Shown piece by piece: positions 2,893-56,066 of a DNA stretch of 64,000 nt (the first letter of the stretch is position 1; every line of letters starts with the position of its first letter). The DNA is from Escherichia phage UE-S1: sequence record ON568341.1. One strand, 5' to 3'. Both the position numbers and the translations under genes were made by a program. The notes beneath the pieces were generated by a model. The model searched no databases, was not told the origin of the DNA, and worked only from the letters and a program-made list of their open reading frames with translations.

Positions 2893-4218
2893 ATGACTAC
2901 TCAAAACGATATCCTGAATGTTAAACTGACTCCAAAGAAAGCTAAAGAAGCAATGGCACTAGCTGACATGATTCAAGATAGCCTGATGATTTGGGGTAGC
3001 CCAGGTATCGGTAAGTCTGCAATTGCTCGTCAATACGCTGATGAAAATTACCCTCTGCGTAAAGATAACGAAGCTAAAATCGAGTTCATGAAACAACAAA
3101 TTGAAGCTGACCCTGAAAATGCTGATCAGCTACGCCGTGAACTGGCTGCATTTGAAGCTAAACTAATCGACCAAGATACTAACTTCATCGATTTCCGTTT
3201 GTCTCAAATTGAACCAAGTGACCTCCGTGGTATCCCTGTACCAGAGAAGCTTTTCCGTAAAACTGACGGTTCTCTTCTCAAAGAATCTGAGCTTGCTGAA
3301 GCAAAAGATTATGTTGCTGAAACTGCTGTAGTTTGGGCTGCACCTAAAGTGCTGAAATTGCCAGAAGATTGGAAAGGGGTTATTCTGTTTGACGAAATTA
3401 ACTCTGCAATGCCAATTGTTCAGGCAGCGTCTTATCAGCTAATCCTCGACCGTTGTGTTGGTGAGATGAAGCTACCTAAAACTGCACTGATTCTTGCAGC
3501 AGGTAACCGTGAAACTGATGGCGGTGTAACGTTCTCACTGGCTACACCACTACGTGACCGTATGACACACATTGAGATGATTCCTTATCATCAAGATTGG
3601 ATTAACGATTATGCAATTGGTAAACGTTTGAACCCAGCAACTGTTGCGTTCATCAACAACACAGGTTCTAAGTACTTTAACACTCTTAGCCCACAAGATC
3701 CTTCTCACAGTGGTGGTACTTCTCCACGTTCATGGGAAGCTGTAGCACGCTACGAAGATCTCAAGAAAACTAAGACAATTGATAAAGAAGTGTTCCGTGC
3801 AATGATTGCTGGGCGTGTAGGTGAAGGTGTAGCAACTGAATACATTGAGTACGTTGATAACGTTGCTAAACTACCAGATACTATGTCTATTCTGTCTGGT
3901 GAAATCAAAGATATCGATGCAACTCTTGATATTTCTGCGAATTATTTTATTACTTTGAACTTGGTTTATAAAATTATCGACCTGTTCAATGAGAAGCAAG
4001 AACAACGTCTACCAGTGGAAGAATGGGGTAAACTGTGCAACAACTTCATTACCTTCCTTGACCATAACTTCTCTGCAACTCAAGCAGAACTGGCAGTTCT
4101 GGCAATTCGCACCATTACGCTTCATAAGGTTGCGATTTCCATTAAAGATGTACCAGCGTTTAAAGATTTTATCGCTAAGTACTCTGAACTAGTTCGTAAA
4201 GCACGCTCTCTTGGGTAA
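2893..4218 (+). CDS. MoxR-like (AAA_5 / CobS-like) AAA+ ATPase
   Basis: Walker A GSPGIGKS, Walker B ILFDEIN, later AAGNRE motif; AAGGAAA ribosome-binding site. Confidence 0.8.
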   Translation: MTTQNDILNVKLTPKKAKEAMALADMIQDSLMIWGSPGIGKSAIARQYADENYPLRKDNEAKIEFMKQQIEADPENADQLRRELAAFEAKLIDQDTNFIDFRLSQIEPSDLRGIPVPEKLFRKTDGSLLKESELAEAKDYVAETAVVWAAPKVLKLPEDWKGVILFDEINSAMPIVQAASYQLILDRCVGEMKLPKTALILAAGNRETDGGVTFSLATPLRDRMTHIEMIPYHQDWINDYAIGKRLNPATVAFINNTGSKYFNTLSPQDPSHSGGTSPRSWEAVARYEDLKKTKTIDKEVFRAMIAGRVGEGVATEYIEYVDNVAKLPDTMSILSGEIKDIDATLDISANYFITLNLVYKIIDLFNEKQEQRLPVEEWGKLCNNFITFLDHNFSATQAELAVLAIRTITLHKVAISIKDVPAFKDFIAKYSELVRKARSLG

Positions 4219-4238
4219 TTAACAAAGAGTGGTTGACA

Positions 4239-4268
4239 AGAAGGATACGATATAGTATCCTTCTTTTA
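4239..4268 (+). terminator. Intergenic stem-loop with U-tract between the ATPase and VWA genes (partial terminator or attenuator)
   Basis: AGAAGGATAC-gatata-GTATCCTTCT followed by TTTAT; a TTGACA lies just 5' but the -10 spacing is poor. Confidence 0.45.
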
Positions 4269-4292
4269 TCTTAACTAAACGAGGAAATATAC

Positions 4293-5717
4293 ATGTCGGA
4301 TAACAAATCTTCATCTAAGTTTAATGAAGTATCACCAGAACTCCAAAAGGAATGTCAAGATCGATTGGTTCTGGCTCGTACATCTTTGATGTTAACTGCT
4401 CCGTTCTTTGGTGTTTTGGCTTCGCGTTTACGTCCTGTTCCTAATAATACATGGTGTCGTACACTAGCAGTTGATGGGAAACATTTATTCTACAATGTAG
4501 AATTTGTTATGGGCATCCAAGATCAATCTAAAAAGAAAGAGTACGAAGATGCTATTCGTGAAAAACACCCAGAGGTTACTGATGAACAATTAAAAGAAAT
4601 GACAGAAGGTCTGACAGATGAAAACCTCATTGCAGTGATTTGTCATGAAATTTTGCATTGTGCTTACGACCACTTCCTTCGTCGTGGAATGCGTGATCCA
4701 CAACGATACAATCGTGCAGCAGATTATGCAATTAACCAAATTATTGTCCGTGAGAAAATTGGAAAAATCCAAAGCTCATGGTTATATGATAAAAAATATG
4801 AAGGAATGACCGCTGAAGAGATTTATATTCTTCTGGAAGATGAAGAACAAAAAGAAGAAGGTGAAGGGAACGGTCAACCACAAAGCGGTGGTGGTGAAGG
4901 TGAAGGTAAAAATCGCGGAACTTTTGGTGATATCAAAGATGGTAAGGGTAAACCAAAAGGTACAACAATTGACCAACATGACGTTCCACAAGAAGGCCAA
5001 GACGGTGGTTCAAGTGAACAGCAAAAACGCGATTATATGGATGATTTCAAAACAGCAATGATGAATGCTGCACGTGCTGGTGGCACACCAGCAGAAATCG
5101 CTCGTATGATTAATAACTTCAAAGAACCAAAGATTGATTGGCGTTCTAAACTTCAACGCACTCTTCGTAGCTGGTTGAAGTCTGATGCAACTTATCAAAA
5201 TCCAGCACGTCGTTCATGGGGTGCAGGTTTTGGTTCTAATGGTTCATTTTATGGTAATCCAATTTATCCAGGGATGAAACCAGATGATGATATTGATATT
5301 GCAATTGCACTCGATGCTTCTGGTTCTATTTCCGAAGACATGCTTCGTGATTTTATTAGTGAAGTTCTTGGTATCACTAAACAATTTAAACAGTTTAAAA
5401 TTCGTATCATGACATTTGATACTGAAGTTTATACTGTAAAAGATTACAAAACTGGTGAAGAACGTAAGATTCTGGAATATCCAGTAAAAGGTGGTGGTGG
5501 TACTGACTTTGAAGCAGTATGGGTTCATATGAAGAATGACAACTATAAGCCTAAACAGCTTGTAATGTTTACTGATGGTGAACCGTGGCAGTCATGGGGT
5601 GATCCTAACTACTGTAAAACACTGTTTGTGATTCACAGTAACCCAAATAAAGTTGCACCATTTGGTGAAACAGTACACTACGAGTATGAAGCAGACAAAA
5701 AACGTCAACGTAGTTAA
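4293..5717 (+). CDS. Protein with N-terminal HExxH metallopeptidase-like region and C-terminal von Willebrand factor A domain
   Basis: HEILH(C)AYDH motif; Gly/Glu-rich linker; MIDAS-like DASGS in IAIALDASGSISEDM; VMFTDGEPW. Confidence 0.75.
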   Translation: MSDNKSSSKFNEVSPELQKECQDRLVLARTSLMLTAPFFGVLASRLRPVPNNTWCRTLAVDGKHLFYNVEFVMGIQDQSKKKEYEDAIREKHPEVTDEQLKEMTEGLTDENLIAVICHEILHCAYDHFLRRGMRDPQRYNRAADYAINQIIVREKIGKIQSSWLYDKKYEGMTAEEIYILLEDEEQKEEGEGNGQPQSGGGEGEGKNRGTFGDIKDGKGKPKGTTIDQHDVPQEGQDGGSSEQQKRDYMDDFKTAMMNAARAGGTPAEIARMINNFKEPKIDWRSKLQRTLRSWLKSDATYQNPARRSWGAGFGSNGSFYGNPIYPGMKPDDDIDIAIALDASGSISEDMLRDFISEVLGITKQFKQFKIRIMTFDTEVYTVKDYKTGEERKILEYPVKGGGGTDFEAVWVHMKNDNYKPKQLVMFTDGEPWQSWGDPNYCKTLFVIHSNPNKVAPFGETVHYEYEADKKRQRS

Positions 5718-6736: not shown

Positions 6737-7330
6737 ATGAAAAAGAATGAATTAGATGAAGCAATTAAAGGTTTATCTAATGTATGTTTTAGTGGCGGGG
6801 CAGCAGGTGCTGACCGCCTTTTTTCAATCTATGCAAAAAATAATGGATTTGAAGTTATTAATTTTTCATTCAAAGGTCATGTGCATAGTGTAGATGAAAG
6901 CACCATATTAGAAATACCATCCAATATTTTATCTGATATTTCTATATTAAATCAACTAAACATTGCATGTTATTCGTTGCAGCGAAAAGTACCAAAGCCT
7001 GGTTCATATGTTTACAACTTACTTGCAAGGAATAGTTATCAGATACTTAATACAGAAAGAATATATTGTATTGCAAATATTACATCGCCAACTAAGGTAA
7101 GTGGTGGTACTGCATGGGCAGTACAGATGTACATTGATTCAGTTGAAAATCCAGAAATTTATTGTTATGATATGAATTCACGTTCTGTGTTTTACTTCGA
7201 TACAGAACTGAAAGAGTTCAAACAATCATTCGTGGTTCCACCACCACATGGTAACTGGACTGGTATTGGTTCACGCAATGCAACAGAAAAACATATGGAA
7301 CATTTTATTACATTTTTCAAGGAAGAATAA
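6737..7330 (+). CDS. Rossmann-like protein with GGAxGxD motif (SLOG / LOG-DprA-like nucleotide-binding fold); function unknown
   Basis: N-terminal VCFSGGAAGADRLF resembles the glycine-rich loop of SLOG-family proteins; stop overlaps the thyA start (TAATG). Confidence 0.45.
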   Translation: MKKNELDEAIKGLSNVCFSGGAAGADRLFSIYAKNNGFEVINFSFKGHVHSVDESTILEIPSNILSDISILNQLNIACYSLQRKVPKPGSYVYNLLARNSYQILNTERIYCIANITSPTKVSGGTAWAVQMYIDSVENPEIYCYDMNSRSVFYFDTELKEFKQSFVVPPPHGNWTGIGSRNATEKHMEHFITFFKEE

Positions 7331-8883
7331 TGAAGCAACTACAAGAACTATATCAAAAAATTCTAGATGAAGGCGTAGAAAGCGTTGACCGTACTGGCGT
7401 TGGCACAATCAAACTTATCGGTCAACAAATGCGTTTCGACCTTAAAGATGGTTTCCCAGCAGTGACGACAAAACGTCTAGCTTGGAAATCAATGACTTCA
7501 GAATTACTATGGTTTATTGAAGGCTCCCATGATGAACGTCGCCTTTGTGAAATTTTACATGGAACTCGTGATACAGAAAAGAAAACTATTTGGACAGATA
7601 ATTGTTTAGATCGTGCAAAAAACGATCCCAATCGATTTAATGGGGAAACGGTCGGTAATATGTATGGCATGAATTGGCGTTATCAACCATCTGAACCACA
7701 TAGCTATCAATATATTGAGAGGAAAACATATATTGATGATTATGTTGAAAATCATATTTGTCCAGAAATTACTGATACATTTAATGGAGTTAAAATTCAC
7801 AAATCTGCCAAATGTGGGGATTATGAAGTTATTGGTAAACATCATAATAATATAGTAATTCGTTTCATTAACACCGGTTCATATAAAATTGTACCAAGAA
7901 CTGCGAAAAATATTAAAGATTTTTTCCAACCATCAATTGAAGGGATTGGATATTTGGGTGGTGTAATTCCTGATACATTAACTGCAAAAAAATTATATCA
8001 AATTTGGAAAGATATGATTATTAGAGTGTATAACCCTAGAAAAAATCATTTATCATATGAAAATATAACTGTATGCAAACGTTGGCATAATTTTATGAAT
8101 TTTTACAATGATGCTTTTTCATTATGGGGATTTCAAGAATTTGTTGACAGTGGGTATTCTCATCAACTTGATAAAGATTATTACGGTTCAAACATTTATT
8201 CACCTGATACTTGTATTTTTATATCAGCATCATTAAATAAAACATTAAATGGTGGTGGACATGGGTTTAAAATTTATCTTTATAAAGGTAATGTATTTTA
8301 TTCTAGAACCGATTTACAAGAATCACGTGGTTTAACAAGAAAGGCCAATTTACCAGATGATGTAACAATATTAGAAGATAATGAAACACACGTAGTAAGA
8401 CCAAAAATATACATTGATCAACTACAGCGTTGTATTGATTTAATAAAGAACGATCCAGATTCAAGACGAATTGTTATTACATCATGGAATTCTAGAGATA
8501 TTGAAAATGCAGCATTAGGTATGTGTCACCCATTAGTACAATGGTTTGTTATTAATGGTAAGTTGTCATGTTCATTTTATATGCGTAGTTCTGATAGCTT
8601 CTTAGGCTTACCATTCAACATAGCATCATATGCACTACTTACCCACATGATAGCACAAATATGTTCTCTAGAGGTTGGAGAATTGATTTATACAGGTGGT
8701 GATTGTCACATTTATAAAAACCACGTTGAACAAGTAAAAGAACAACTACAGCGAAAACCACGTGAATTACCTGAATTGTGGCTTGATCCTACCATTACTA
8801 ATATTGAAGATTTCACAATGGATTCTTTCAAATTAGTAAATTACAACCCAATGCCAACAATTAAAGCACCGATGGCTGTATAA
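7330..8883 (+). CDS. thyA: Thymidylate synthase (ThyA family) with a ~228-aa in-frame insertion
   Basis: N-terminal TS motifs (DRTGVGT, FPAVTTKR) and C-terminal TS core (NDPDSRRIVITSWN, catalytic CHPLVQWFV, LGLPFNIASYALL, GGDCHIY); 517 aa rather than ~265-285. Confidence 0.85.
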   Translation: MKQLQELYQKILDEGVESVDRTGVGTIKLIGQQMRFDLKDGFPAVTTKRLAWKSMTSELLWFIEGSHDERRLCEILHGTRDTEKKTIWTDNCLDRAKNDPNRFNGETVGNMYGMNWRYQPSEPHSYQYIERKTYIDDYVENHICPEITDTFNGVKIHKSAKCGDYEVIGKHHNNIVIRFINTGSYKIVPRTAKNIKDFFQPSIEGIGYLGGVIPDTLTAKKLYQIWKDMIIRVYNPRKNHLSYENITVCKRWHNFMNFYNDAFSLWGFQEFVDSGYSHQLDKDYYGSNIYSPDTCIFISASLNKTLNGGGHGFKIYLYKGNVFYSRTDLQESRGLTRKANLPDDVTILEDNETHVVRPKIYIDQLQRCIDLIKNDPDSRRIVITSWNSRDIENAALGMCHPLVQWFVINGKLSCSFYMRSSDSFLGLPFNIASYALLTHMIAQICSLEVGELIYTGGDCHIYKNHVEQVKEQLQRKPRELPELWLDPTITNIEDFTMDSFKLVNYNPMPTIKAPMAV

Positions 8884-8917: not shown

Positions 8918-11188
8918 TTATCTAATTGTTACCAACGTTCTTCCGTCGAAACGTACATCAGGAGTTGAAGGTATACTGAACACTACGTTAGTGCCGTTAA
9001 ACGTCACGCTATCGACCTCAACACGAGTATAGACACCTGGACTAACCTGTTCCTGTATCTCTGCTGTGACGATGTTTGAGGCTGTTACAGTAAGGGTGTA
9101 GTAGTTACCACTTAATACCCAAGATGAAATGGTAAATGCATCGGTTCTTACTGAACCTGAACCAATTGGAACCCATTGACCTTGAACTTTTTGCATTGAA
9201 GTACGCTCGGTATTGGAGTATGCAATCATACCATCAACACCAACAGAGTTATCAATAGTAGCTAGTACTGGTAATTGAATACCATATCTATTGAAACGTG
9301 TTCTAATAATTCCATTATCATAGATACTTACATCAGCATAATTCCCCATTGAAAGTTTCAAATCTGAATCAACTAATTGCATTGTACTTTGGTTAGTAGG
9401 GCTTTCTAAAGTAATTATTCCATTTGGTAATAAGCTTAAGTTTTTAAATTTATTCGAATTACCATTAAAATTTGTATTAGCGTTGAAAGTACTAGTTCCA
9501 TTAACTACTATTGTGTTTTCTGCGGCATCACCTAATATTGTATTTCGTTGAACAATCAAGTTACCATTAGCAGTAATATTAGTCGCTGTAGTATCACCAT
9601 TTAATTTTGTATTAGCGTTGAAAGTACTAGTAGCATTAACTACCAATGTGTTTGTTGCGTTGTCACCTAATATAGTATCACTTTGAACATTCAAATTACC
9701 ACTAGCAGTAATATTAGTCGCTGTGGTATCGCCATTTAATTTACTTGTACCATCAACTACGATATTACTATTAAATTTCGTATTAGATTTAAAAGTACTA
9801 GTAGCATTAACTACCAATGTGTTTGCTGCGGTGTCACCTAATATTGTATTGCTTTGAACATTCAAATTACCACTAGCAGTAATATTACTAGCTGAAGTAT
9901 CACCAATTAATCTACTTGTACCATCAACTACGATATTACCATGAAAATCGCTTTCACCGTTTTTAAATTCCACTTGTACCGAATACATAGAACTAAATGA
10001 AATTATATTACTACTTGCACTTATACCAACATTAGTATTAGTTGGGTTATCGAAGTGTAATATTGGAGTTAATGCTGGTGTTGTTGTTGTTTGATAGAGC
10101 GTTAATGATGAGTTGTTAATTCGCACACGTTCTGTTCCGGCAGTACTAAATCCAATAGCATCATCAGCAGGATGAAAAATACCAGTATTAGTATCAGACC
10201 ATTTTTCAGGATCATTACCAGGATTACTTGTTGGGTCGAATGGTTTATTATTAAATGCTATCGCTGGTGCGGAAGCACTCCCATATACAACACCAAAACG
10301 ACCAGACCCTATTGTACCATCATCATACATTGAATCGCCTGTTCTACGTAAACATTCAATTACAACATTATCTATGGAAGTTTGAACTGTACCAGCATTA
10401 GTTCTGAATTGACGATTATTTGCAATCATAATAGTGTTATCATATAACACAGAAGCTGCTGAAATACTTGTTCTTGATTGACGAAGGCGTATGTTTTTAT
10501 CTTCAGTAATAATAATCCAATCACCATCAGATAGTGCTGTTTGATTCATTGGCACACCGGAAGCAAACGGCTTAGTTAAATCATCATCAGTTGCTAAATT
10601 AACAAGTCCACTATGCCCAGTACTAGGGATGGAAGTTGAAATAATTCTTGCAAAAGCGTTTGTTACGAGCTTTGCACCAGATATATTTGGATTAGAATCA
10701 ACATAATATAAAATTTCAACCCAATTCCCCTGTCCAGTTGGGTTAGTTGGAGTAAATGTTACTGGGCTGGTTTTTGGTTTATTCGCTTCAAAATGTGCTT
10801 GGGCGGCATCCATAATACCACGCACAACATAATAATCACCACTAAGTGATGATGAGGGTGCAGGTAGTGGGCTTTGGGCTAACGGTGGGTCAATATCATC
10901 TGGAATCGGATTATATGTACCAACAAACTGTAAACCACTAGTTACTGAATCTGGTAATTGAGATGTAAGAAGTTTACCATTTGCATCTAAGTTAGCGAAA
11001 CGCCTGTATGCCATTGAACCATCTTCAAAATCCAGAACACCCTCGAACGATTTCCATGCTTTATTGTATCTAATCATCCCTGATCTTATTACATCAGCGG
11101 TTTCTTTTGATGGTGCTTTTGGTAATTCTAAAAAAGATTTACTATCAATAATTACACCACCATCACCTCTAATTCGATTTATACTCAT
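8918..11188 (-). CDS. Tail fibre protein, repeat-rich (distal fibre-like)
   Basis: 756 aa; several tandem ~45-aa repeats (NITASGNLNVQS-TILGD-A-NTLVVNATSTF); Thr/Asn/Ser/Gly-rich. Confidence 0.6.
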   Translation of the reverse strand: MSINRIRGDGGVIIDSKSFLELPKAPSKETADVIRSGMIRYNKAWKSFEGVLDFEDGSMAYRRFANLDANGKLLTSQLPDSVTSGLQFVGTYNPIPDDIDPPLAQSPLPAPSSSLSGDYYVVRGIMDAAQAHFEANKPKTSPVTFTPTNPTGQGNWVEILYYVDSNPNISGAKLVTNAFARIISTSIPSTGHSGLVNLATDDDLTKPFASGVPMNQTALSDGDWIIITEDKNIRLRQSRTSISAASVLYDNTIMIANNRQFRTNAGTVQTSIDNVVIECLRRTGDSMYDDGTIGSGRFGVVYGSASAPAIAFNNKPFDPTSNPGNDPEKWSDTNTGIFHPADDAIGFSTAGTERVRINNSSLTLYQTTTTPALTPILHFDNPTNTNVGISASSNIISFSSMYSVQVEFKNGESDFHGNIVVDGTSRLIGDTSASNITASGNLNVQSNTILGDTAANTLVVNATSTFKSNTKFNSNIVVDGTSKLNGDTTATNITASGNLNVQSDTILGDNATNTLVVNATSTFNANTKLNGDTTATNITANGNLIVQRNTILGDAAENTIVVNGTSTFNANTNFNGNSNKFKNLSLLPNGIITLESPTNQSTMQLVDSDLKLSMGNYADVSIYDNGIIRTRFNRYGIQLPVLATIDNSVGVDGMIAYSNTERTSMQKVQGQWVPIGSGSVRTDAFTISSWVLSGNYYTLTVTASNIVTAEIQEQVSPGVYTRVEVDSVTFNGTNVVFSIPSTPDVRFDGRTLVTIR

Positions 11189-18633: not shown

Positions 18634-20775
18634 TTATGGTAGGGTTATATACGTTACTGGCTGGGCAGCTTTTAATGATGCACCAGCGGCAGTTGCTGTT
18701 ATGATGGGATCTGCAATATCAATTCTATATACATTATTAACAACATATACTGCACGAGTTATATACGTTTTCAAATCATCACCATTTTCCCCAGCACCAG
18801 ATATAATGATCTCAGTACCAGCCGCTTTTGCATATTGGTTATCACCCCATGACACACCCAATGCTTCTATATACGTTTGTCCTACTGTCGTTTGTCTAAT
18901 TGTGTCATATTTTCCAAAAAATGAACCACCCACTGTTACAATATATTTTCCACCAGATTTTTTATGTATAATCGTCCCTTCTGGGAAGTATCTTCCTCCA
19001 GGAAAAGTATCATATGGAATATAATATTGCTCAACTACAGGTATTAGTACTGGACCACGGTGACCAGTACCGTCAATTGCAGTTGTTACTTTGAAATTAT
19101 TAGATGATTGATCGATTCTATCTACGTACATTTTAGAAAAACTATATTTTGAAACATTACAATCATCTTGAACAACACAGTTAGTCCAATTAGTATAAGT
19201 ATATTTAGAGCGAGTATACATACCCCCACCTTCACCTTCAGTGGAAAGGTGTTGTCCTATGACATCTAATTCTTTTGTTCTGATATCACTAAATTTAGAT
19301 GAAGATGGTAGACCACGCCAAAGAATTTTAGAACAAGTAATATTACTTAATTCTGTACTATTCAACCAATTATCCGATCCAGAAGTATAAACGATTACGG
19401 AAGACTCTGGTATATAGAGATTGGATATTTTAAAGTTTCTAGGTGGACCAGCAAATCGACCACCAGTTACACCCCAGTTAATAGATACCATACGGTTTGT
19501 GACTGTAGGATCATTAAGTAAATGTCCGGTTAAACCATCAATTACAAACTCTTTTGAACCATAAGTTATTACACCAGCAGTTGTTAACCCAGTACCAACG
19601 GAAATTAAAGATGATGGGTACACCTCATTATCAAGTATTTTGAAATCCATTCCCAATTCGACATGGATACATTGTCTAACATTATAAAGTCTATTATTCT
19701 TAATAACAAAGTTTCTAACATATTGTGTATCAGGGGCATCCAAATCATAAGGACCAGACCCAGCAACACCAATACCAATACCCCAGTTTGAAAGCGGGAT
19801 TGGTGCATCAGAACCATCAACATTTTCAATTATATTACCTTCAATTACAAAACCATCAGGATAATGTGAGTTAATAACGTTCAATTCAATTGCATCCCCG
19901 TAGATATCATGAATGTGGTTGTATGAATAACGACCAACCTTCATTTTCTCACCAGTTCCTTGTTGGAGAACGCCATATTTACATTTAGTCATTTCATTAA
20001 AGCAAAAATCTATTGTGCCAGATTGGGTCATACCTTGCATTAAGAACGCAGCAGTACTGGTAATGTTAATAAATTTATTAAAATAAAATTTACCATCCCC
20101 GCCAAAGAATTTCAAATAACAGCCAGTAAGTGTGGTGAATTGAATTTGTGAATTAATAACGGATATCATAGTTCCACCATTACCCGTAATAGTGCCACCA
20201 AACCAAGTTACATCTTCCAAATATACTGCTTTTTTGATACGATAATTACCACCTGCTTGAATTTGTATTTTATTTTCTTTTGCATAAGTTGCACACAAAT
20301 TTACAGCTTCAGTGTCATCGGTTTCCCCATCACCTTTCGCACCAAATTCTTCTGGTGTTATATAGAACTGTGCTTGTTGAACTGTACCGCCAGTAACAAG
20401 GCCAATGAAATCACCACCATTTTTACTTGATAGTGCTTTTTTATTAATGTAGAGTGATTTAATCCAAGTACCATTAGTTTTTACGAAGATATCAACAATA
20501 CCATCTTCATCAATTTGAAAATAAGTATTATTATTTTTTCCAATATCATCTGACGGTGATTGAACACCAAATAATGCATTTGGATTATCTTCAAGGTATC
20601 TAATATTAACTGCTGAATCTTGGTCTGATGGTGTTCCTACTTTTAGTGGTAGAAACTTTTCACCTAGATAATCTTTTATCGATACGGAATCATTGACGAA
20701 ATTTATCGAAGCACCATTTTTACCCAATATCATTTTTGGTTTCATGGTCCCTTCAAAATTAGAAAATACTGCCAT
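18634..20775 (-). CDS. Tailspike-like protein with pectate-lyase-type beta-helix signature (possible depolymerase); start moved to the internal ATG
   Basis: EEFGAKGDGETDDTEAVN motif; ATG at 20775 preceded by AAGGGGGGTG; the track N-terminal extension would overlap the upstream gene. Confidence 0.6.
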   Translation of the reverse strand: MAVFSNFEGTMKPKMILGKNGASINFVNDSVSIKDYLGEKFLPLKVGTPSDQDSAVNIRYLEDNPNALFGVQSPSDDIGKNNNTYFQIDEDGIVDIFVKTNGTWIKSLYINKKALSSKNGGDFIGLVTGGTVQQAQFYITPEEFGAKGDGETDDTEAVNLCATYAKENKIQIQAGGNYRIKKAVYLEDVTWFGGTITGNGGTMISVINSQIQFTTLTGCYLKFFGGDGKFYFNKFINITSTAAFLMQGMTQSGTIDFCFNEMTKCKYGVLQQGTGEKMKVGRYSYNHIHDIYGDAIELNVINSHYPDGFVIEGNIIENVDGSDAPIPLSNWGIGIGVAGSGPYDLDAPDTQYVRNFVIKNNRLYNVRQCIHVELGMDFKILDNEVYPSSLISVGTGLTTAGVITYGSKEFVIDGLTGHLLNDPTVTNRMVSINWGVTGGRFAGPPRNFKISNLYIPESSVIVYTSGSDNWLNSTELSNITCSKILWRGLPSSSKFSDIRTKELDVIGQHLSTEGEGGGMYTRSKYTYTNWTNCVVQDDCNVSKYSFSKMYVDRIDQSSNNFKVTTAIDGTGHRGPVLIPVVEQYYIPYDTFPGGRYFPEGTIIHKKSGGKYIVTVGGSFFGKYDTIRQTTVGQTYIEALGVSWGDNQYAKAAGTEIIISGAGENGDDLKTYITRAVYVVNNVYRIDIADPIITATAAGASLKAAQPVTYITLP

Positions 20776-20788
20776 TATGACACCCCCC

Positions 20789-21916
20789 TTAAATATTATC
20801 TTGAATAGGTTGGACCGGAGCTTGCCATGAAAGAGTACAAATAATTTCCATTTTACCATAAGGACTATTATTAACTGAATCATTGAATACACATGAAATA
20901 ATTTCATCTACATCTGAAACTTCATGATTTGTTTCATTAACAATAAAACGCATCTGGTGATTAATATCAAAGTAGGATGTTGGTGCAATGACAGTACCAC
21001 CAATATTTTCGTTTGCTTCACCACCGAAACGAACAAACATATCGGTTACTGGAATGGAGTAAGGTTGAAGAATATTTACATCAATATTTGAAACCACATA
21101 ACCAGCAGGACAAGTTCCTATAACCAATAGTGCGTTTGTCCATGAATGGTCAATGATATTTCTTATAGAAATTGTATCTTTACCTGGTGCACCCGGTTCA
21201 CCTTGCTTACCTTGAATACCTTGTGGACCTTCTTTACCACGGAATAAAATACCACTACTCCATTCTTTTGATGGTGGGGTGGTAGTTGTTACTTCATCTA
21301 CATAATAAAGTTTACCATCAGTGTTGTTATAGAAACAATAATCAACTGGGAGGTTTTCTATGCTTGGAAATTGATCACCACTACCGTCAATATGGAAACG
21401 ACCACGTGGACCTTGCTCGCCACGGAAAGGAATACCATCACTCCATGTTGCTGTTACTTTTTGATAAAAATATAATTTACCATCTTGTGTATTGTAAAAT
21501 GTATAGTTATCAAAAAGACCAGAACTTGGAAAATTAGTTCCCGCACTATCGATATGAAAAGGCTTACCAGCTTCACCAGTATCACCTTTACCAAATTCTA
21601 CACTAATCCATGTACTGGTTTGTTCTTGTGCATCATTTGATTTAAAATACAAAGTACTTGTGTTATTTGCCAAGCTAAGGTAGCACCAACCAAGTGGTTC
21701 ACCAACTTTGAATTTATCAGACGGAACTTCAAAACCAATCTCGTTTGGATAAAAGTTCTTACCGTTTTCACCATTTTGTCCTACAACAAGACCTAAATCT
21801 TGAATTGTATTATCGGTATAGGTTACAATTAAATGACCAGCAGCATTAATAACTAGACTTTTGATGCCGGAGTTATTACATGAACCACTGGACCCATTGT
21901 TAAATGAAATTGTCAT
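20789..21916 (-). CDS. Collagen-like repeat-containing tail fibre protein
   Basis: Gly-X-Y triplet runs (GQNGENGKN; GEQGPRGR; GKEGPQGIQGKQGEPGAPGKD). Confidence 0.6.
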   Translation of the reverse strand: MTISFNNGSSGSCNNSGIKSLVINAAGHLIVTYTDNTIQDLGLVVGQNGENGKNFYPNEIGFEVPSDKFKVGEPLGWCYLSLANNTSTLYFKSNDAQEQTSTWISVEFGKGDTGEAGKPFHIDSAGTNFPSSGLFDNYTFYNTQDGKLYFYQKVTATWSDGIPFRGEQGPRGRFHIDGSGDQFPSIENLPVDYCFYNNTDGKLYYVDEVTTTTPPSKEWSSGILFRGKEGPQGIQGKQGEPGAPGKDTISIRNIIDHSWTNALLVIGTCPAGYVVSNIDVNILQPYSIPVTDMFVRFGGEANENIGGTVIAPTSYFDINHQMRFIVNETNHEVSDVDEIISCVFNDSVNNSPYGKMEIICTLSWQAPVQPIQDNI

Positions 21917-24758: not shown

Positions 24759-26102
24759 TTATTTGTCAGTGAAAGTTATTTTCCAATATCCTTGTCGATA
24801 AACAGGCATAATACTCTTATGCCATTTAAATTTGTCATTATACCTATAATAACCATTATCTTCTTTATTATAAATGTAGTTACGTACAGATGATGGGTCA
24901 ATTAACTCAACACCATCGTTTGTAATTTTAAACATATAATTTGAAGGAATTTCGGTTTCTTTATAAATGATGTTATGTATACTGTTATTTACATAATATT
25001 GTTCCGGTATTGCATCGAAAAGAACTGAACCTTTCTGTACAAAACCGTGTATCGTATAATCGACAGTATAGTTACTATTATCAAGCTGTACAATAATTTT
25101 GTTAGCATCTTCATTTTCACCATATGAAGATATATAGCCTTTAAGTGGGTTGTCTTCTTCGATTGACTGTTGAAATTTAATACCTACTTTTTTGTCATCA
25201 AAATTTGGTTCTAAATATTTAAGATATTTTTCCCATGAATATATACCACCATTAGGCGAAACATCAGATAATGATTGACTGACTAAAGTTAGCTGATATG
25301 TATCTGGCAAATTATATAAAGAATTAGTTATTTCTTCAACTTTAATACATAAATTTTTGGGTGTAAAAACATCAGTAATTATATCAGTATAGTCACCCAT
25401 TTCAATATCAAATTCGTCACGAGCACCTTTAATGTTAGTAGTAATTTGTTGAATTAGTTTTGGCTTTTCAACAATAGCTGGCAAAGAAAACCATATTGTT
25501 GTTTCAAATGTTAATACCATTATATCTAAATCTTGGTCAGTACCTTGTGGAAAACCACGCGTGGTGAACTGACAATCAATTAATTCAACATCACTAAGTG
25601 ATGTCCAGTCCAATGGATTATCTGATAATTGAAGCTGGATGCTTGGTGCAAATAAAGTAGAGATTTGCTCGAATAATTCCATTTTTGTTTGAATTTGAGT
25701 TACCCAAATGTTCAAATCAAATGTAAAAGTCCAAGGTACAGGGTTGTGTCTTACAATTTTATACTGTGTGTCAAGTTCCTTTTTATATTCATTAATGGCA
25801 GGAGACTTGTTCGTCCCCATCACTAAAGTTTCATTTGCATTAGAGCGTACACTCTTGCGATCCAACTTTAGTTGGTTAACACTTATTGTCATAATAGGTG
25901 CTGATGGTAAAACATTTTCACTATTCCCATTAATAATTGCTGCTGCCATTCTTGAAATATCAGCATAACGACATGGAACTTTTTTATATTTTGGGTTCCC
26001 ATCAGCATCAACGCCATTTTGCACTTGAAATTCACCAAAAACTCTGATAAGATGTTTCAGTACTCTGCGAAATTGACCGTCATAATAATAATCTATCTTC
26101 AT
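24759..26102 (-). CDS. Hypothetical virion or structural protein
   Basis: 447-aa ORF; start overlaps the upstream stop (ATGA), suggesting translational coupling. Confidence 0.5.
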   Translation of the reverse strand: MKIDYYYDGQFRRVLKHLIRVFGEFQVQNGVDADGNPKYKKVPCRYADISRMAAAIINGNSENVLPSAPIMTISVNQLKLDRKSVRSNANETLVMGTNKSPAINEYKKELDTQYKIVRHNPVPWTFTFDLNIWVTQIQTKMELFEQISTLFAPSIQLQLSDNPLDWTSLSDVELIDCQFTTRGFPQGTDQDLDIMVLTFETTIWFSLPAIVEKPKLIQQITTNIKGARDEFDIEMGDYTDIITDVFTPKNLCIKVEEITNSLYNLPDTYQLTLVSQSLSDVSPNGGIYSWEKYLKYLEPNFDDKKVGIKFQQSIEEDNPLKGYISSYGENEDANKIIVQLDNSNYTVDYTIHGFVQKGSVLFDAIPEQYYVNNSIHNIIYKETEIPSNYMFKITNDGVELIDPSSVRNYIYNKEDNGYYRYNDKFKWHKSIMPVYRQGYWKITFTDK

Positions 26103-27604
26103 TCTGTATCCTTATGTATACGATATGCAGTATTTGGTTTAACTGCGTCATGTAATGGAACTTTATTATCACTATTTACAAACTTAGTAAGTGCTAAATC
26201 TGCACCTTCCCATGGTTTTCTGCCACCATAATCAAAAATAACCCATGAATTCTTTGTTGCATTGAATTCCCATAGTGTGACTGGTGTATAATCGGTGCGA
26301 TAAAAATAATCCCCATCAACTGCGTCCGTAGGGAACATAGTTCCTTCTGGTACAGTTCCCCTGGCGGGTGGAATTTTCGGTCGATAATCCTGTTGGGCAT
26401 CAATATTTCCATATACACTATTTGATGTGAATGGCTCATTGACATAGGTTACTTTTGGTTCACCCCATCTATCGTCATTGTACTGAAAAATATGCGGTTC
26501 TTTATAAAAAATACAAAAATCTTCAATATCTTGCGGTGGAATATCACTTGTAGTGTATTCTACATCACAATTTAGCCATTTTTTAGCACTTTTGTCATAC
26601 TGATACAACGTATACCCGGTCACATCTGCATCATTTTCTTTAAAGAAGAAATCCCCATCCATTGGTTTTTTTGGAAAAATGGTTCCACGCTTGACTTCCA
26701 GTGAAATCCATGTATCATTGTCATACTCTTTAAGTACTGGGTACGTTTTTTTCAAAAAATACATACCATTAGCAGGTTCTTCTGGAAAATCGTAACCGTT
26801 GAGCATATATTTAGATAAATCTACGGTGTCGCGGCGGTCATCATACAAATGCTCGTTCGTATAATGGATATAAGGTACTTCATCATCAGCTTGCATGATA
26901 ATACGGTTCATAATATCCATTTCATTACTATAGTTACTGTTTTCGGACGTACCATCAGTAGTGTTTCCATTACCATTATTTGGATCATTTGGGTTATCTG
27001 GGTAATTATTGTTTCCCAGCAAGTCAGAGTACTCAGGTGAATCAGTTAGTGGTTTCACTCGAAGTTTGTAAATGTGGTGTTGCCACGTCACAGAGTAACC
27101 TTCGGCTGTACGAAATGCATCTTGTACCACATAGAAGCGATTTAGTCCAGAATCTTTACCAAGTACATCATAATCACGTAAATTTGGCAGTTCTATCACA
27201 TCACCAGGCATGATTTTCCTGCCTAATCGTTGCATCATCGTATTGTAATGAATTGTGATGTCCATTGTATTAAAATTAAAGAACAATCCTGGGATTTTCA
27301 AGTCAGGAGTTGCTTCTTGGACTTGATAAACACAACTAAGTGTGATTGCTTCAAGGTTGTAGCTTCGATTTGGCGTGTCTCCAAAAATTAAATCACCAAT
27401 ACTTGACACAACCGTACCAGAAGATGTATAATCACCACCATATGATAAGTCATTGGTATCAGCAACTGGTTTTGGACCGACATAAGCGTAAAGCCACATG
27501 TCAACTCCACCAATATTGTATTGTTCGGCAATGGCAGAGTCAATGAACTTGTAATCATTTGTTCTACCTTTTTTCCACATTCTATATGTCATATTTGTCT
27601 CCAA
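26099..27604 (-). CDS. Hypothetical virion or structural protein
   Basis: 501-aa ORF; Asn/Asp/Gly/Tyr-rich. Confidence 0.5.
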   Translation of the reverse strand: METNMTYRMWKKGRTNDYKFIDSAIAEQYNIGGVDMWLYAYVGPKPVADTNDLSYGGDYTSSGTVVSSIGDLIFGDTPNRSYNLEAITLSCVYQVQEATPDLKIPGLFFNFNTMDITIHYNTMMQRLGRKIMPGDVIELPNLRDYDVLGKDSGLNRFYVVQDAFRTAEGYSVTWQHHIYKLRVKPLTDSPEYSDLLGNNNYPDNPNDPNNGNGNTTDGTSENSNYSNEMDIMNRIIMQADDEVPYIHYTNEHLYDDRRDTVDLSKYMLNGYDFPEEPANGMYFLKKTYPVLKEYDNDTWISLEVKRGTIFPKKPMDGDFFFKENDADVTGYTLYQYDKSAKKWLNCDVEYTTSDIPPQDIEDFCIFYKEPHIFQYNDDRWGEPKVTYVNEPFTSNSVYGNIDAQQDYRPKIPPARGTVPEGTMFPTDAVDGDYFYRTDYTPVTLWEFNATKNSWVIFDYGGRKPWEGADLALTKFVNSDNKVPLHDAVKPNTAYRIHKDTE

Positions 27605-27634: not shown

Positions 27635-27662
27635 TAGACAAACCATAAGAATGTGATATAAT
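27635..27662 (+). promoter_or_regulatory. Sigma70-type promoter: TAGACA, 16-nt spacer, TGaTATAAT
   Basis: Same ATGTGATATAAT motif as the promoters at 2602 and 2695; about 40 nt upstream of the ClpA-like start. Confidence 0.5.
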
Positions 27663-27703
27663 GTTTATTAATTAGAGTGACGGTGAATCACATAGGAGAA
27701 TAC

Positions 27704-29992
27704 ATGAATCTTACTCAATTGTTCAAAAAAAGCGACGAACTGGCAACATCTCTCGGTCATACATTCTTGACTATTGACCATGTGAGTGCTACAGTACTAA
27801 CCATTGATAGCATCAAGAACGTGTTTGAAGATATGAATATTGATGCAGACAAATTGCATAATCGCTTGATGGACTATCTTAAAAATACATCGGTTCCACA
27901 TGCACCAAAAAGTACAAAAGATGAAGATGCCAATCGTACTTCACTACTAGTAAATCGTGTCGTACATGAGCTTTCAAAAAAATCTGTCATTGAACAACTA
28001 AAAACTGATGATTTTTCGATTGATGCATATTTTGTACTATTTGAATGCTTGTCTTTCCCAAACACTGCACTTGAAGCTGCATTGAAAGAAGAAGGTGTTA
28101 GTTGTACTGAGGCGGCTCGTGCACTACAGAAACATGTTGAGACACTTAATAAGGGTATCAACCTACAAAGCATTAATGATGAACCTACTGGAGATAAAAA
28201 AGTGGCTCAACCACAGCAATCATCTAAACAAAAAGGGTTAGAAGACTACACCACGAATCTAACCGCTCTTGCAAAAGAAGGAAAATTAGATCCGATGATT
28301 GGTCGCCAAAAAGAACTGCGTGCACTGATTGAGACACTCGCTCGTAAAACTAAAAAGAATGCAATTCTTACTGGTGAAGCTGGTGTAGGTAAAACACAAA
28401 TCATTGATGGACTGGCTCAAGCCATCGCTGATGGTAATGTACCTGAACACCTGAAAAATGTTGAAATTCTTTCACTAAATGTTGGTGCATTGACTGCTGG
28501 TACAAAGTACCGTGGTGAGTTTGAAGAACGCATCGATAATTTACTAAAAGAACTAAAGAAACGCGAAAATACTATTGTTTTCATTGATGAAATTCATATT
28601 ATGGTTGGTGCAGGTTCTGCAAGTAATGGCTCTATGGATATGAGCAATATGCTAAAACCAGCACTTTCACGTGGTGAGATTCGTGTGATTGGTGCAACAA
28701 CATACGAAGAATATCGCAAAAATATCGAAAAAGATAGTGCATTAACTCGTCGTTTTATGAAAATTGACGTAGTTGAGCCGACAATTGATGAAACTCGTGC
28801 AATTGTTAATGGGTTAAAGCCAACTTATGAAAAATTCCATAATGTTGAGTTTACATCCGATGCAATGGATGCTGTAATTTCTCTCAGTGATAAATTCCTG
28901 AAGAATAAACACTTCCCTGATAAAGCAATTGACCTAATGGATGCTGCTGCTGCCAAAGTTCGCTCACGTGACAATAATAGTAAGCTTATTACTGCAAGCT
29001 TGGTTCAAGAAGTGGTTGCTGGTATTGCAAACTTAGATATCAATGTGGTTGCATGTACCGAAAGTGAACGTATGCGTAATCTTCCAGATGCACTTCGTTC
29101 ACGTGTATATGGTCAAGATGAGGCTATTCAAAAATTAGTAGATAACGTAATGGTTGCTCGTGCGGGACTACGTGATAAATCAAGTGTTCAGGGTGCATTT
29201 ATGTTCGTTGGTCCATCTGGAACTGGTAAAACTGAAATCACCAAAGCATTAGCTGATGCAACTGGTTCTGAACTTATTCGTTTTGATATGTCAGAGTTTT
29301 CACAAGAACATACAGTATCTAAACTTATCGGTTCACCTCCAGGGTATGTTGGTCATGATTCTGGTAACGGATTACTGCTAGATAAGATCGAACAGTTTCC
29401 GAATGCAGTACTGTTACTTGATGAAATCGAAAAAGCAGATCGTAAAGTACTACTAACCTTCCTACAGGTTCTGGATGAAGGTCGTTTGACTGGTTCACAA
29501 GGAAAAACTGTATATTTTAATAACGTAACTGTTATTATGACTACAAACCTTGGTGCGGCAGATTCAACCAAACGTAGTATTGGTATGAGTGGTAGTGAAA
29601 CTGCTCAAGATAAAGCAATCAAAGCATTTTTACCACCTGAATTCATTAACCGTATTGATAGTATCGTTACGTTTAATGAACTAAGCAGTGAAGCGATTGA
29701 TAGCATCATTGATAAATTTATTGGAAGCTTAAATGACCAAGTAAAAAGCCGTAATGTAAAAGTTACTCTTACAAAAGCAGCACGTGAATGGTTGGCACAA
29801 AATGGTGTACAGGCTGGTATGGGTGCACGACCAATGAAGCGTACAATTGAACAAAACATTCGTGTCCCACTAGCGAAAGAAATGCTGTGTGGAACGCTAG
29901 TGAATGGTGGTAACATCACATTTGATGTTATTAATGGTAAAATTGGTATCAAACCAAAACGTACCAGAACAGTTGAAAAATCACTAGCCTAA
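27704..29992 (+). CDS. ClpA/ClpB-like double AAA+ ATPase (unfoldase); start moved to the ATG with an AGGAGAA ribosome-binding site
   Basis: Two P-loops (GEAGVGKTQ; GPSGTGKTE), two Walker B sites (IVFIDEIH; [10 protein letters not shown]), Clp-N-like N-terminus; the track start at 27677 is a GTG. Confidence 0.8.
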
Positions 29993-30027
29993 AAAAGAAA
30001 AGGAGAGCATATTGCTCTCCTTTTTTA
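29992..30027. terminator. Bidirectional rho-independent terminator
   Basis: A-tract, AGGAGAGCA-tatt-GCTCTCC hairpin, T6. Confidence 0.65.
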
Positions 30028-33000: not shown

Positions 33001-36000
33001 AATCAAATCATTAAGTTCAATAGTGCTATGTTGACGACCAATAGCTTTCCAATAAATTGAATCACGCGATTGTGCTTTGATATACAACGTCCAAATATTT
33101 TCACTATCCGTAACTCTGATGATATCACCAACTTGATAATTTTTAGTATTTGCTTCTTCTAAACTAGTCTCTTGAATATAAGCTGTTTTGCTATCATACC
33201 CAACGTCATACCAATCAGCATACGACCAGTACTGAGTCATATCTAATGATGTTCCAAGTGATTCGACATAATCACTTTGCTTAATCATTTTATGTTGTCC
33301 CTCACCTTTATTTTCTAAAGTTATAGTAACAACATTTCCTGTATTGGCTGGGCTGTTCATTAACTGAATATATCCATTTTCATCAAAGTGAATGAAATAA
33401 ACTGCACTAGTGGATAAAGGATTTGGTAGATAACCACTGGAACTTAAAATAACAGCGTCATTTTCTTTAAATTTATCCTGCTCGACTGCAATCACTAATT
33501 CATTATTATAAGACAATACACGGAAAGAAACCTCATTAGGGTTAACTTCTGTTGTTTTGACATTAAACACATCTTCCATAACAACACTATTAGTGGTTAT
33601 GTTTTGTGATCTATAATAATTATTTGCACTTTCTACAAAGTTTCTTCGTGCATCAATTACATTCTGGAACCAGGTTTTATTGGAGCCTATACCATTATCA
33701 ACATCTGGATATAATAAATTTATCACCGAACCTGACTTGGTTGTTTCTTGTCCTATTAGTGAGTTCCACATTGAATCCCAAATTAATGGATTAAAGTTAT
33801 AGCTTTCACCCTCTTTACACAGTTGGTATTGATCATGTTTAACAACTTCAGTACTGTCCATATAGTAAGAAATAGTCAAAACACTAGTGTCATCATTGAC
33901 TTTAAACTGCATATTACTAAGGATAAAGGAGTTTTCATTAATTGGTGCAAACCAAGGAATGTTTAACTGTGATGGATCTTTAATAATACGTGCAATATCA
34001 GTACATGATTTAGTTCTGGTATGTAAAGGTGGTACATAAATTGTATCACGTACCCAGAAATAGTATTTTGTCACATAACTGTCAGTTGAGCTATCATATT
34101 CCAAAAATGTACTATAATTATCTTCAAGTGCAGTTCCGCTTGGAAGATACATATTATTATTTTTGTTTTTCTTAGCAACATCTTTACAGTACTTATCCCA
34201 GTTATATGGTTCTACTGGCGAGCATACCCACTCCAATACATCAATAGTGCTATGTGGCAACAAACGCCCCCAGTTGTATCGTTTGTATTCATTAGTAGCG
34301 TCAATATCAACATTACCATCTGCGTCATAAATGGCACGAGTATAATCCAAATAAAATGCAGTGCTTGTGTTCCACCATACTTGACCTACTTTATCTGCAC
34401 CCCAAGCTTGGACTAATTCACCATTACTATTATATTGTGCAGGGTCAATTGGTGAAGTATATGTCACGTTTTGCATAGCTGCACCTGGAATAACACCATT
34501 AATTGGGTCATAAACGTTTAGATATAATGCAGTAATATTTGTACGTTCATCATACGTTGTTGGTCGTTCAAATAGAGTGCTCTGTGGTGCTTTAAAGCTA
34601 TATTTTTTGTCAATATATTCTTGACGTTTATCAGCACTAGTGAATCGTGACACATAACGATACAAACGTGGACGAGTAGCCGGATCAGTAAATTCAATAT
34701 TAATTGAAGTATCAAATGGAACTACCATAACTTTAGGATCTTCGCCAGCAGTGTAATATTGACTTTCTACAGTTAAGGTATCTGGCATAAAATTCGTTTC
34801 ATCAACAAAATAATAATAATCGCCATCTTCAAGTGGGATTTTATCAGTCAATGTTACTTTACAGAATTGTTCAGCGTAAATATCGGTATTTTCGATTGGT
34901 GTTATAGAAACCATTTGCACATTAGTGTCAACTAATTCAAAAATGTTCCACAAACCATTACCATCTTTAAACATCCAAACTGATTCAGGATTTTCACCTT
35001 TACCATTAACATAAGAAATGCGGTCGTTATATGCAGTACTGAAATCTTTAGTAGTGTAAGATACTTCATCTAAGGTAACTGGACCAATATCAGGAAGTTG
35101 AATGTGTTCACTTCTCCCACTACGCATTGGAAATGAAAATTTTCCATTCGGGCGTGTAATCCAACGTGGGTCTTTACCTTGATCACCAAAATATACAACA
35201 TTATTACCAGTACCATTTGAAGTTGCATTTTCATCAAAAGACACCATTTGTGGTTGTTGTTTAAATTGGTCATTAATTAATTTAAATTGAAGATTTTTCT
35301 TACCATCAATATTACCATATGTACCAATTTTAAATGCCCATTCTTGTAATGCTTTATACTCATCAGTGTCATATGATTTAGAAACACGCAAAACACGTTC
35401 TAAAACTTGGTTAGTACCTTTATCATGAATAAATCCTTTATAAAAATCAACACGACTAACATCGCTACTAATCATACGTTGTAGATAATCACGGGATTGA
35501 TAGCCAATTAAATGACTAGACAATTCTTGTAATTGTACATCGCTTACTGGACTTTCATTATCATAGTAATGTTGGAAATCAGTTACTAATGTTTCAAATG
35601 AAGGAATTGTACCAGATTCTAATATAATAAAACCAGGTGCTTGTAATCTTCCAGTCCATGAACCAGTAATATAACCGTACATTTTGATTAGTTCCTGAAT
35701 AGAACCATATGTTGGTTGATAGATGTAATCACCAAAAATAGTTTTATCATCAAATATAACCGCATGTTCATATGAACACAAACTTAAACGAAGTAATGCA
35801 ATACGTTTATTAGAATCTAATGTTCTAACAGTGAAAATATTACCAATACGAGAAGTTTCGATTTCATACTGACGAATACCTTGGTTATTATCGTCAAGTA
35901 GTGACCATACTCCACCATTATTTTGTGTAATAGACTGAACTGAACCAAAATCTGAACCAAATTTTGCATTTGCTGCACTTGGTGTACAAGATATAAATTC

Positions 36001-43540: not shown

Positions 43541-43604
43541 AATTTATTCCTTTAAATCAGTAAAGTACTAGTTCAGTACTGGGAATTATATAGAAATATT
43601 TATT

Positions 43605-55214: not shown

Positions 55215-55305
55215 AATTCCTCACCAAACTATTTGTCATCACAATATTTATAGATTAGTTATTTGCAATATTTTAAGTACTTAATGAATATTTTATAAAA
55301 ATAGT

Positions 55306-55333
55306 GAGACAACTTTAAAATTTGTGCTATAAT
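55306..55333 (+). promoter_or_regulatory. Sigma70-like promoter: GAGACA, 16-nt spacer, TGcTATAAT, firing into a non-coding block
   Basis: GTGAGACAACT plus TGCTATAAT; near-identical architecture to the promoter at 5766-5793. Confidence 0.45.
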
Positions 55334-55339
55334 ATTTGT

Positions 55340-55787: not shown

Positions 55788-55810
55788 AGAGACTTCATTG
55801 TCTCTTTTTT
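55787..55810 (+). terminator. Rho-independent terminator ending the candidate ncRNA
   Basis: TAGAGAC-ttcatt-GTCTCT hairpin followed by T5. Confidence 0.4.
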
Positions 55811-56017
55811 ATTGTCTTCATTCCCCTGCGGGGGGATGAAAATGTCCTCAACAAATCCCGTCAAGTATTAAATCTTTTAAAGTTCTTTATAATTAATTTA
55901 ATGAAATGAATATGAGTTACGTAGTAACGAATATTCTTCAGCTAACGAATGAAATGAGTTAGATGAATCCAATAATATTAAAATTAATTCTTCCATAATT
56001 CAATTCAAATAATTCTG

Positions 56018-56046: not shown

Positions 56047-56066
56047 ATGTGCTGGTCGTGTGGGAT

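Follow-up and report, generated by a model that had tools for sequence, protein, structure and literature searches.

Escherichia phage UE-S1 (sequence record ON568341.1) encodes a Clp-type unfoldase within the 64-kb stretch of DNA analyzed here, referred to below as the window, and a tblastn search of the window found no homologs of ClpP, ClpS, or ClpX. This raises the question of what such an unfoldase works with in the infected cell. The initial annotation of the locus was right that the window lacks a ClpP-like peptidase, and it proposed that the protein might be an orphan that redirects host ClpP or a disaggregase. The gene is already known: dozens of genomes of related phages carry an annotation for it, and papers on RaK2-like jumbo phages mention it. 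A search of the literature for functional or transcriptomic data on the ClpA of RaK2-like or PA5oct phages returned annotation-level remarks only.

Genomic context of the clpA gene

The window is collinear with positions 271.4 to 335.3 kb of Escherichia phage 121Q (Asteriusvirus), at 87-94% nucleotide identity, and the nearest deposited genome shows about 10% nucleotide divergence. The ClpA protein is 95.7% identical to 121Q gp581 (annotated as "ClpA-like"); identity is about 96% to the proteins of 121Q, PBECO4, slurp01, SP27, and phAPEC6, about 75% to that of RaK2, and about 61% to those of GAP32, BF, and Yen9-04. The ClpA-like proteins of the RaK2-like phages (121Q gp581, PBECO4, phAPEC6, RaK2 ORF069, and GAP32_229; PHROG 4871) represent the same gene at the same locus. 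Genes for a NUDIX protein, a gp15-like protein, and a virion protein of ~500 aa, all on the minus strand, are followed by clpA on the plus strand and by the gene for a virion protein of ~3300 aa on the minus strand, an order common to RaK2, GAP32, Munch, EJP2, Yen9-04, XbC2, and BF. The clpA gene lies between tail-sheath-stabilizer and baseplate genes, antiparallel in a late tail/baseplate block. The window shares its flanking genes, antiparallel orientation, proximal promoter, and terminator with its RaK2-like relatives, but differs in an extra G in the 5' leader that brings an upstream GTG in frame. The gene and its immediate signals are as follows.

27635 to 27662, plus strand: proximal promoter P1, with TAGACA, a 16-nt spacer, and an extended -10 element, TGaTATAAT
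27694 to 27699, plus strand: Shine-Dalgarno sequence AGGAGA, 4 nt 5' of the ATG, read from the sequence
27704 to 29992, plus strand: clpA coding sequence, 762 aa plus stop
29996 to 30026, either strand: bidirectional intrinsic terminator, with a 14-bp stem and a T-run on both strands

The longest open reading frame runs from 27677 to 29992 on the plus strand, is GTG-initiated, and comprises 771 aa. The true start of clpA is nonetheless the ATG at 27704, which is supported by the Shine-Dalgarno sequence, by the 762-aa length given for the same product in the 121Q annotation, and by a Logan contig that encodes a 762-aa protein identical to the window ClpA. This identical protein was found in sequencing runs SRR31305037 and ERR12263181. 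The AGGAGA sequence is also kept in 121Q and in the Logan contig, and it belongs to the ATG. In the absence of the extra G that the window has at 27682/83, neither of these two sequences has the upstream GTG in frame with clpA; a start at the GTG at 27677, which in them is frameshifted or runs into a stop, was rejected.

Directly after the clpA stop codon, the terminator (RNA fold energy -19.1 kcal/mol, z = -6.0) separates clpA from the convergent gene for the giant virion protein, which is 3331 aa long in the window. Phage Munch has an annotated terminator at the equivalent position. With sigma-70-type promoters in front and a terminator of its own behind, clpA forms a separate transcription unit. 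An Rfam scan of the 64-kb window gave no matches.

A promoter class shared by clpA and clpP

P1 matches the consensus at 11 of 12 positions and has the TG in addition; position 27635, which the initial annotation took as the left end of the feature, is the first base of its -35 hexamer. A TGnTATAAT promoter lies 35-48 nt 5' of the ATG in all nine lineages examined. The longer motif GACA-N12-15-TGnTATAAT has six copies in the window, all on the plus strand. The copies at 2602 and 2695 precede an ATPase/VWA cassette (2893-5717), and the others are found before clpA, before a gp55-like late-sigma gene, and at two other sites. In this ATPase-plus-DUF2201/VWA cassette, the VWA partner was confirmed, and the ATPase has no Pfam match but does match PHROG 1297. 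It had been described as a MoxR-like cassette driven by the same promoter motif as clpA, and the common motif was recovered in our analysis, with the same class also present before 121Q clpP. Across the 121Q genome, the motif occurs 24 times on the plus strand and never on the minus strand, against an expectation of 0.54. Two of these copies lie directly before clpP (214302) and clpA (298189), and others precede ssb, primase, exonuclease, tRNAs, and the late-sigma gene.

The commonest -35 element of this class is GGGACA rather than TTGACA, and an RpoD-like sigma factor encoded by 121Q (gene 167) is therefore a possible reader. The use of the motif by the late-sigma gene argues that the class would be active before late transcription. 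P1, which had been described as an early-type promoter, is of sigma-70 type and probably acts before the late genes, whether at an early or a middle stage. No T4-type late promoter, TATAAATA, was found before clpA. This late motif precedes several neighboring structural genes and shows no overall enrichment, with seven copies found and 10 expected.

Domain architecture of the ClpA protein

The predicted protein contains the Pfam domains Clp_N, AAA, AAA_lid_9, AAA_2, and ClpB_D2-small, arranged as follows.

27704 to 28138, plus strand: N-domain with a divergent Clp_N fold, about aa 1-145
28238 to 29026, plus strand: D1 AAA+ module
28373 to 28396, plus strand: D1 Walker A motif, GEAGVGKT
28499 to 28525, plus strand: D1 KYR pore loop, GTKYRGEFE, aa 266-274
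28574 to 28597, plus strand: D1 Walker B motif, IVFIDEIH
28742 to 28756, plus strand: D1 arginine fingers, LTRRF
29027 to 29938, plus strand: D2 AAA+ module and D2-small domain
29210 to 29233, plus strand: D2 Walker A motif, GPSGTGKT
29336 to 29356, plus strand: D2 GYVG pore loop, PPGYVGH, aa 545-551
29411 to 29437, plus strand: second Walker motif of D2
29579 to 29587, plus strand: ClpP-docking tripeptide IGM, aa 626-628, aligned with I617-G618-L619 of E. coli ClpA
29636 to 29659, plus strand: D2 arginine finger, PEFINRID
29822 to 29842, plus strand: D2 sensor-2 motif, GARPMKR

The top-scoring model is the NCBIfam ClpA model TIGR02639, which covers the protein end to end (760 bits, model positions 4-732 of 734) and, together with the Pfam domains, bears out the earlier description of a full-length two-ring Clp ATPase with a Clp-N-like N-terminus. 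The equivalog cutoff of this model (993 bits) was not reached, and the protein is best described as a divergent, predicted ClpA-like protein rather than a curated equivalog. The best match among solved structures is E. coli ClpA (E = 8e-180). PHROG 4871 ("ATP-dependent protease") matches with 1032.5 bits, residues 2-755 aligning with profile positions 11-760 of 764. We also aligned the window ClpA with E. coli ClpA and four phage homologs; in this alignment the E. coli and window proteins are 41% identical. They share the domain order N-D1-D2 and a similar length (758 aa in E. coli, 762 aa in the phage), as well as the ATPase and pore-loop motifs, sensors, arginine fingers, and position of the ClpP-docking loop. 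The phage N-domain, by comparison, is barely recognizable from a single sequence: it scores 22 bits against a Pfam Clp_N cutoff of 20.7, and the isolated domain finds PDB matches at E = 0.03 only. A profile built from five phage N-domains nevertheless matches E. coli ClpA N-domain structures in register (E = 1.2e-9).

The Walker, pore-loop, arginine-finger, and sensor residues are all invariant in the alignment, among the phage lineages as well as in E. coli. These include the equivalents of E. coli K220, Y259, D285/E286, and R339/R340 in D1 and of K501, Y540, D564/E565, N606, R643, and R702 in D2. Loss of pore loops or sensor residues, which would have indicated an inactive ATPase, can be set aside. 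Relative to 121Q, the dN/dS ratio is 0.04, N-domain included. The initial annotation had suggested looking for an IGF/L-type docking loop in the second AAA domain, and one is present there as the IGM variant, in place of the IGL of E. coli ClpA. Across lineages, the tripeptide is IGM in both the window and 121Q, IGV in RaK2, LGM in GAP32, and IGF in Deifobo, a PA5oct-like phage. The glycine is invariant and both flanking positions are hydrophobic throughout the lineages aligned; Met or Val as the third residue is a variant of the Leu/Phe type, and a loop of this kind is a predicted docking element.

The protein had been called ClpA/ClpB-like, and it was also compared with other double-ring families. 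ClpB and Hsp104 resemble the window ClpA in having two AAA+ rings and a Clp_N-type N-domain, and they give high-scoring partial matches. They differ in carrying an M-domain coiled coil in D1 and lacking a ClpP-docking loop, and the window ClpA is the reverse: its alignment with E. coli ClpA is continuous between D1 and D2, with a gap of only 2 aa and no M-domain. Models or structures of ClpB, ClpC, ClpV, ClpK, and ClpG match in two separate stretches. In the ClpB model, the M-domain region finds no counterpart: residues 13-430 align with positions 6-398 of the 853 in the model, and what remains forms a separate second match. The missing M-domain and the presence of the docking loop rule out a ClpB-like disaggregase, so that the ClpA half of the earlier label holds and the ClpB half does not. 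ClpV/TssH was also rejected, since the match to TIGR03345 is split into two stretches and reaches 555 bits where the cutoff is 885, and the neighboring genes encode phage tail and baseplate proteins. Judged from its sequence, the gene product is an intact ClpA-type unfoldase of a 121Q/RaK2-like jumbo phage, under selection, and not a ClpB-type protein.

Candidate peptidase and adaptor partners in related genomes

The idea of an orphan unfoldase that borrows host ClpP rested on a missing partner, and this premise is an artefact of a view limited to 64 kb out of ~350 kb. The relative 121Q, whose genome is complete, encodes both a ClpP elsewhere in that genome (gp464) and a ClpS-like adaptor (gp48). 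A phage ClpP encoded elsewhere is what the initial annotation had named as refuting its reading, and the apparent oddity of an unfoldase without a peptidase partner vanishes once complete related genomes are compared. 121Q gp464 matches Pfam CLP_protease over its full length (4e-41), scores 155 bits with cellular ClpP models versus 51 bits with the head-maturation ClpP model, and shares 35.6% identity with E. coli ClpP, the Ser-His-Asp triad being aligned and intact. ClpX was not found in the whole 121Q genome, which leaves the phage ClpP with no Clp unfoldase of phage origin other than ClpA. Adaptor gp48 scores above the Pfam ClpS cutoff, has an N-terminal extension of ~65 aa, and carries substitutions at positions aligned with N34, D36, and H66 of E. 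coli ClpS. In 121Q, clpP and clpA are about 84 kb apart; clpA, clpP, and clpS are scattered and form no operon, and this dispersal around the phage genome is a difference from E. coli ClpAPS.

In our phage collection, ClpA, ClpP, and ClpS are distributed over practically one and the same set of ~70 records, with 70 records for ClpA (at least 60% identity), 69 for ClpP (at least 60%), and 71 for ClpS, all of them RaK2-like. Such sets are a recurring feature of RaK2-like jumbo phages, and we infer from these relatives that the UE-S1 genome also carries clpP and clpS. We further compared gp464 with E. coli ClpP at eight positions that we take to form the docking pocket. Four of the eight are changed non-conservatively (Y60T, F82S, F112L, and L114G), and the pairing of ClpA with ClpP is for this reason not readable from the sequence.

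Two other 121Q proteins were rejected as ClpA partners: gp473 ("ClpP-like"), with a sub-cutoff score of 16.7 bits and a signal-peptide-like N-terminus, and gp475 ("HslV-like"), with a match at about 19 bits. A role of ClpP as the capsid protease was likewise rejected. A separate T4 gp21-like protease gene exists in the window (62453-63076) and in 121Q, so ClpP is not needed for head maturation. A single ClpP-homolog peptide has been detected in CBB virions (PMC5259590), and this could point to a morphogenetic role of ClpP.

Phage-encoded ClpA with ClpP is also known from other jumbo phages (PMC6102473). The PA5oct-like Pseudomonas jumbo phages (Wroclawvirus) and Agrobacterium phage Atu_ph07, which are distantly related to UE-S1, carry both proteins. 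The PA5oct-like ClpA differs from the window ClpA in its gene neighborhood and its IGF loop, with 42% identity between the two. The PA5oct-like ClpP is nearer to cellular ClpP, at 46-64% identity to E. coli ClpP versus 36% for the 121Q ClpP.

Proposed role of the phage ClpA

The most likely mechanism, to which we assign a probability of roughly 0.6, is a protease made up of phage-encoded ClpA and ClpP and served by a ClpS adaptor that is likewise phage-encoded. ClpA would assemble as a hexamer that threads substrates into a tetradecamer of ClpP, most likely that of the phage itself, which would be homologous to 121Q gp464 and encoded far beyond the 64-kb window. A ClpS-like adaptor, the gp48 homolog, would bind the divergent N-domain and pick or modify substrates. 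The clpA gene would probably be expressed ahead of the late genes together with clpP, both having the same promoter class, and its product is non-structural, judging by the virion proteome of phAPEC6. The result would probably be a regulated proteolysis of the phage's own during a long infection, with host, misfolded, or phage regulatory proteins as possible targets. Points in favor of an autonomous ClpAP are the retention of an IGL-type loop in every lineage, the co-occurrence of the three genes, and the promoter class shared by clpA and clpP; points that count against it are the sub-cutoff TIGR02639 score (760 vs. 993), the Met in the loop, the four altered docking-pocket positions of ClpP, the ClpP peptide in CBB virions, the scattered genes, and the location of clpP and clpS beyond the window. 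If the protease is autonomous, it would exemplify a virus that supplies a regulated proteolysis system of its own, which might serve in host takeover, counterdefense, or quality control in long infections.

Alternatively, the protein might dock on host ClpP, alone or alongside the phage ClpP, competing with host ClpA and ClpX and redirecting the peptidase to new substrates. The retained IGM docking loop, the abundance of ClpP in E. coli hosts, and the lack of ClpP in the 64-kb window are all compatible with such a role. We consider it unlikely, however, as the complete relatives all have their own ClpP with an intact triad under the same promoter class, which would be superfluous if host ClpP served, and as the same gene set is found in a clade infecting hosts from Escherichia to Xanthomonas, which favors a self-contained system. 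The conserved place of clpA among tail genes could instead hint at a role in assembly. E. coli ClpA alone has chaperone activity, as in the remodeling of RepA, and the phage protein might similarly act without ClpP as a chaperone or assembly factor, unfolding, remodeling, or folding huge virion proteins such as its 3331-aa neighbor or translocating during morphogenesis. Its position beside the gene for this giant protein and the tail and baseplate genes is kept in at least eight further lineages. In general terms, ClpA and ClpX of jumbo phages have been put forward for such roles, as potential translocases or helpers in assembly, and phage ClpS as an adaptor (PMC7824862). Several observations make a ClpP-independent function improbable as the main one, however: clpA is opposite in strand to its neighbors and has sigma-70-type promoters rather than a T4-like late motif, the ClpP loop is kept in all lineages, which argues for coupling to a peptidase, and a mass-spectrometry table of phAPEC6 virions includes the products of the clpA neighbors (gp245 and gp248) and not ClpA (PMC7247149). 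Use of host ClpP and a ClpP-independent role are not mutually exclusive alternatives.

A decaying or inactive captured bacterial clpA without current function would agree with the score under the NCBIfam equivalog cutoff and with the very divergent N-domain. We regard decay as extremely improbable and as effectively refuted by the conservation data, given the dN/dS of 0.04, catalytic residues that are invariant among lineages just 41-75% identical, and the clade-wide retention of the locus, promoter, and terminator. There is also a more elaborate form of the ClpA-ClpP-ClpS protease model, in which the RaK2-like machine is orthogonal, its interfaces having co-diverged from those of the host, and in which the distal promoter-like site P2, described below, couples pre-late clpA expression to antisense silencing. 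The IGM/IGV/LGM loop may then match the altered pocket of ClpP (Y60T, F82S, F112L, and L114G), and the 65-aa N-terminal extension of ClpS may go together with an altered N-degron pocket. We hold this elaboration to be doubtful. If true, a private set of targets, for instance host defense or takeover targets, would be degraded without cross-talk with host ClpAPS.

A distal promoter-like site within the virion gene

A second promoter-like site was identified upstream of P1.

27403 to 27432, plus strand: distal promoter-like site P2, TTGACA-N18-TATAAT, a 12/12 match

P2 is located 272 nt 5' of the clpA ATG, inside the 5' portion of the gene for the 497-aa virion protein and antisense to it. Nine lineages were examined, and the site is absent from EJP2 and XbC2 and present in the other seven (the window, 121Q, RaK2 with an 11/12 match, GAP32, Munch, Yen9-04, and BF), at 263-274 nt from the ATG. 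Its two hexamers fall on codons for D-Y-T/S and for S-S, at a distance of six codons. In a codon-level alignment, GAT TAT AC. and TCA AGT are identical in the window, 121Q, RaK2, and GAP32. These codons sit within what is otherwise the most variable stretch of the virion protein N-terminus, and the 18-nt spacer between the hexamers is unconserved. The pattern looks like selection at the DNA level. P2 is a new, minor detail of this locus, and it might add to clpA expression, produce an antisense RNA against the late gene, or do both.

Antisense promoter upstream of clpA and the ClpS-like adaptor

The ClpA-type unfoldase gene clpA lies amid late tail and baseplate genes on the opposite strand, and a second promoter-like sequence is found approximately 270 nt 5' of it.

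27403-27432, +, perfect sigma-70 consensus promoter, antisense within a late virion gene (27592..26099, -)

This promoter was found in seven of the nine RaK2-like jumbo phage lineages examined, and in the virion gene the codons beneath its hexamers are invariant, with hypervariable protein sequence on neighbouring positions. It may serve clpA as a second promoter, regulate the virion gene in antisense, or combine the two roles.

The complete, collinear relative Escherichia phage 121Q also encodes a ClpS-like adaptor, at a position beyond the window.

34461-35006 of 121Q (NC_025447), ClpS-like adaptor gene

The protein has an N-terminal extension of approximately 65 aa and is substituted at the positions aligned with N34, D36, and H66 of E. 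coli ClpS, and its gene adjoins IF3-like and KTSC/DnaJ-like genes. Clade-wide identity is 38-64% for the ClpS-like adaptor versus 60-75% for ClpA and ClpP, indicating that the adaptor evolves faster.

MoxR-like cassette and an ORF-poor stretch

Two tandem 12/12 extended -10 promoters, one at 2602 and one at 2695, lie 5' of the MoxR-like cassette, which shares with clpA the extended -10 promoter class GACA-N12-15-TGnTATAAT.

2893-4218, +, "MoxR-like" ATPase gene, matching PHROG 1297
4293-5717, +, partner of the ATPase, with DUF2201_N metallopeptidase and VWA-like domains

The ATPase itself matched nothing in Pfam at E <= 1e-3. In phage phAPEC6, the 49.5-kDa "ATPase" gp265c was among the virion proteins detected by mass spectrometry (PMC7247149). 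Size and gene order suggest that gp265c is the homolog of the MoxR-like ATPase, and its listing as a virion protein would be unexpected for an ATPase of the MoxR type.

Another copy of the promoter motif is located near the start of a stretch of approximately 1 kb (55215-56275) in which we found no convincing ORF.

55306-55333, +, GACA-N13-TGnTATAAT promoter motif

The stretch returned no Rfam matches, and the matching part of 121Q carries no annotation. It may represent a small, so far unannotated gene or a non-coding RNA.

Differences from 121Q

7330-8883, +, thymidylate synthase ORF, 517 aa (309 aa in 121Q)
8918-11188, -, tail-fibre or depolymerase-like gene, 756 aa (654 aa in 121Q)
18634-20907, -, tail-fibre or depolymerase-like gene, 757 aa (713 aa in 121Q)

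The thymidylate synthase ORF has the same ends as its 121Q counterpart, with an in-frame middle insertion of approximately 210 aa that has mosaic flanks and breaks the Pfam ThyA match into two parts. The inserted segment resembles those of homing endonucleases or inteins, or else a read-through intron ORF; an Rfam scan of the window detected no group I intron. The HNH endonuclease gene 584 of 121Q, located between gp6-like and gp25-like baseplate genes and labelled "associated with group I intron", has no counterpart in the window (43555-43583 versus 314100-314864 of 121Q). Nucleotide identity to 121Q is lowest in the region of the tail-fibre or depolymerase-like genes, whose differences probably reflect host-range variation.
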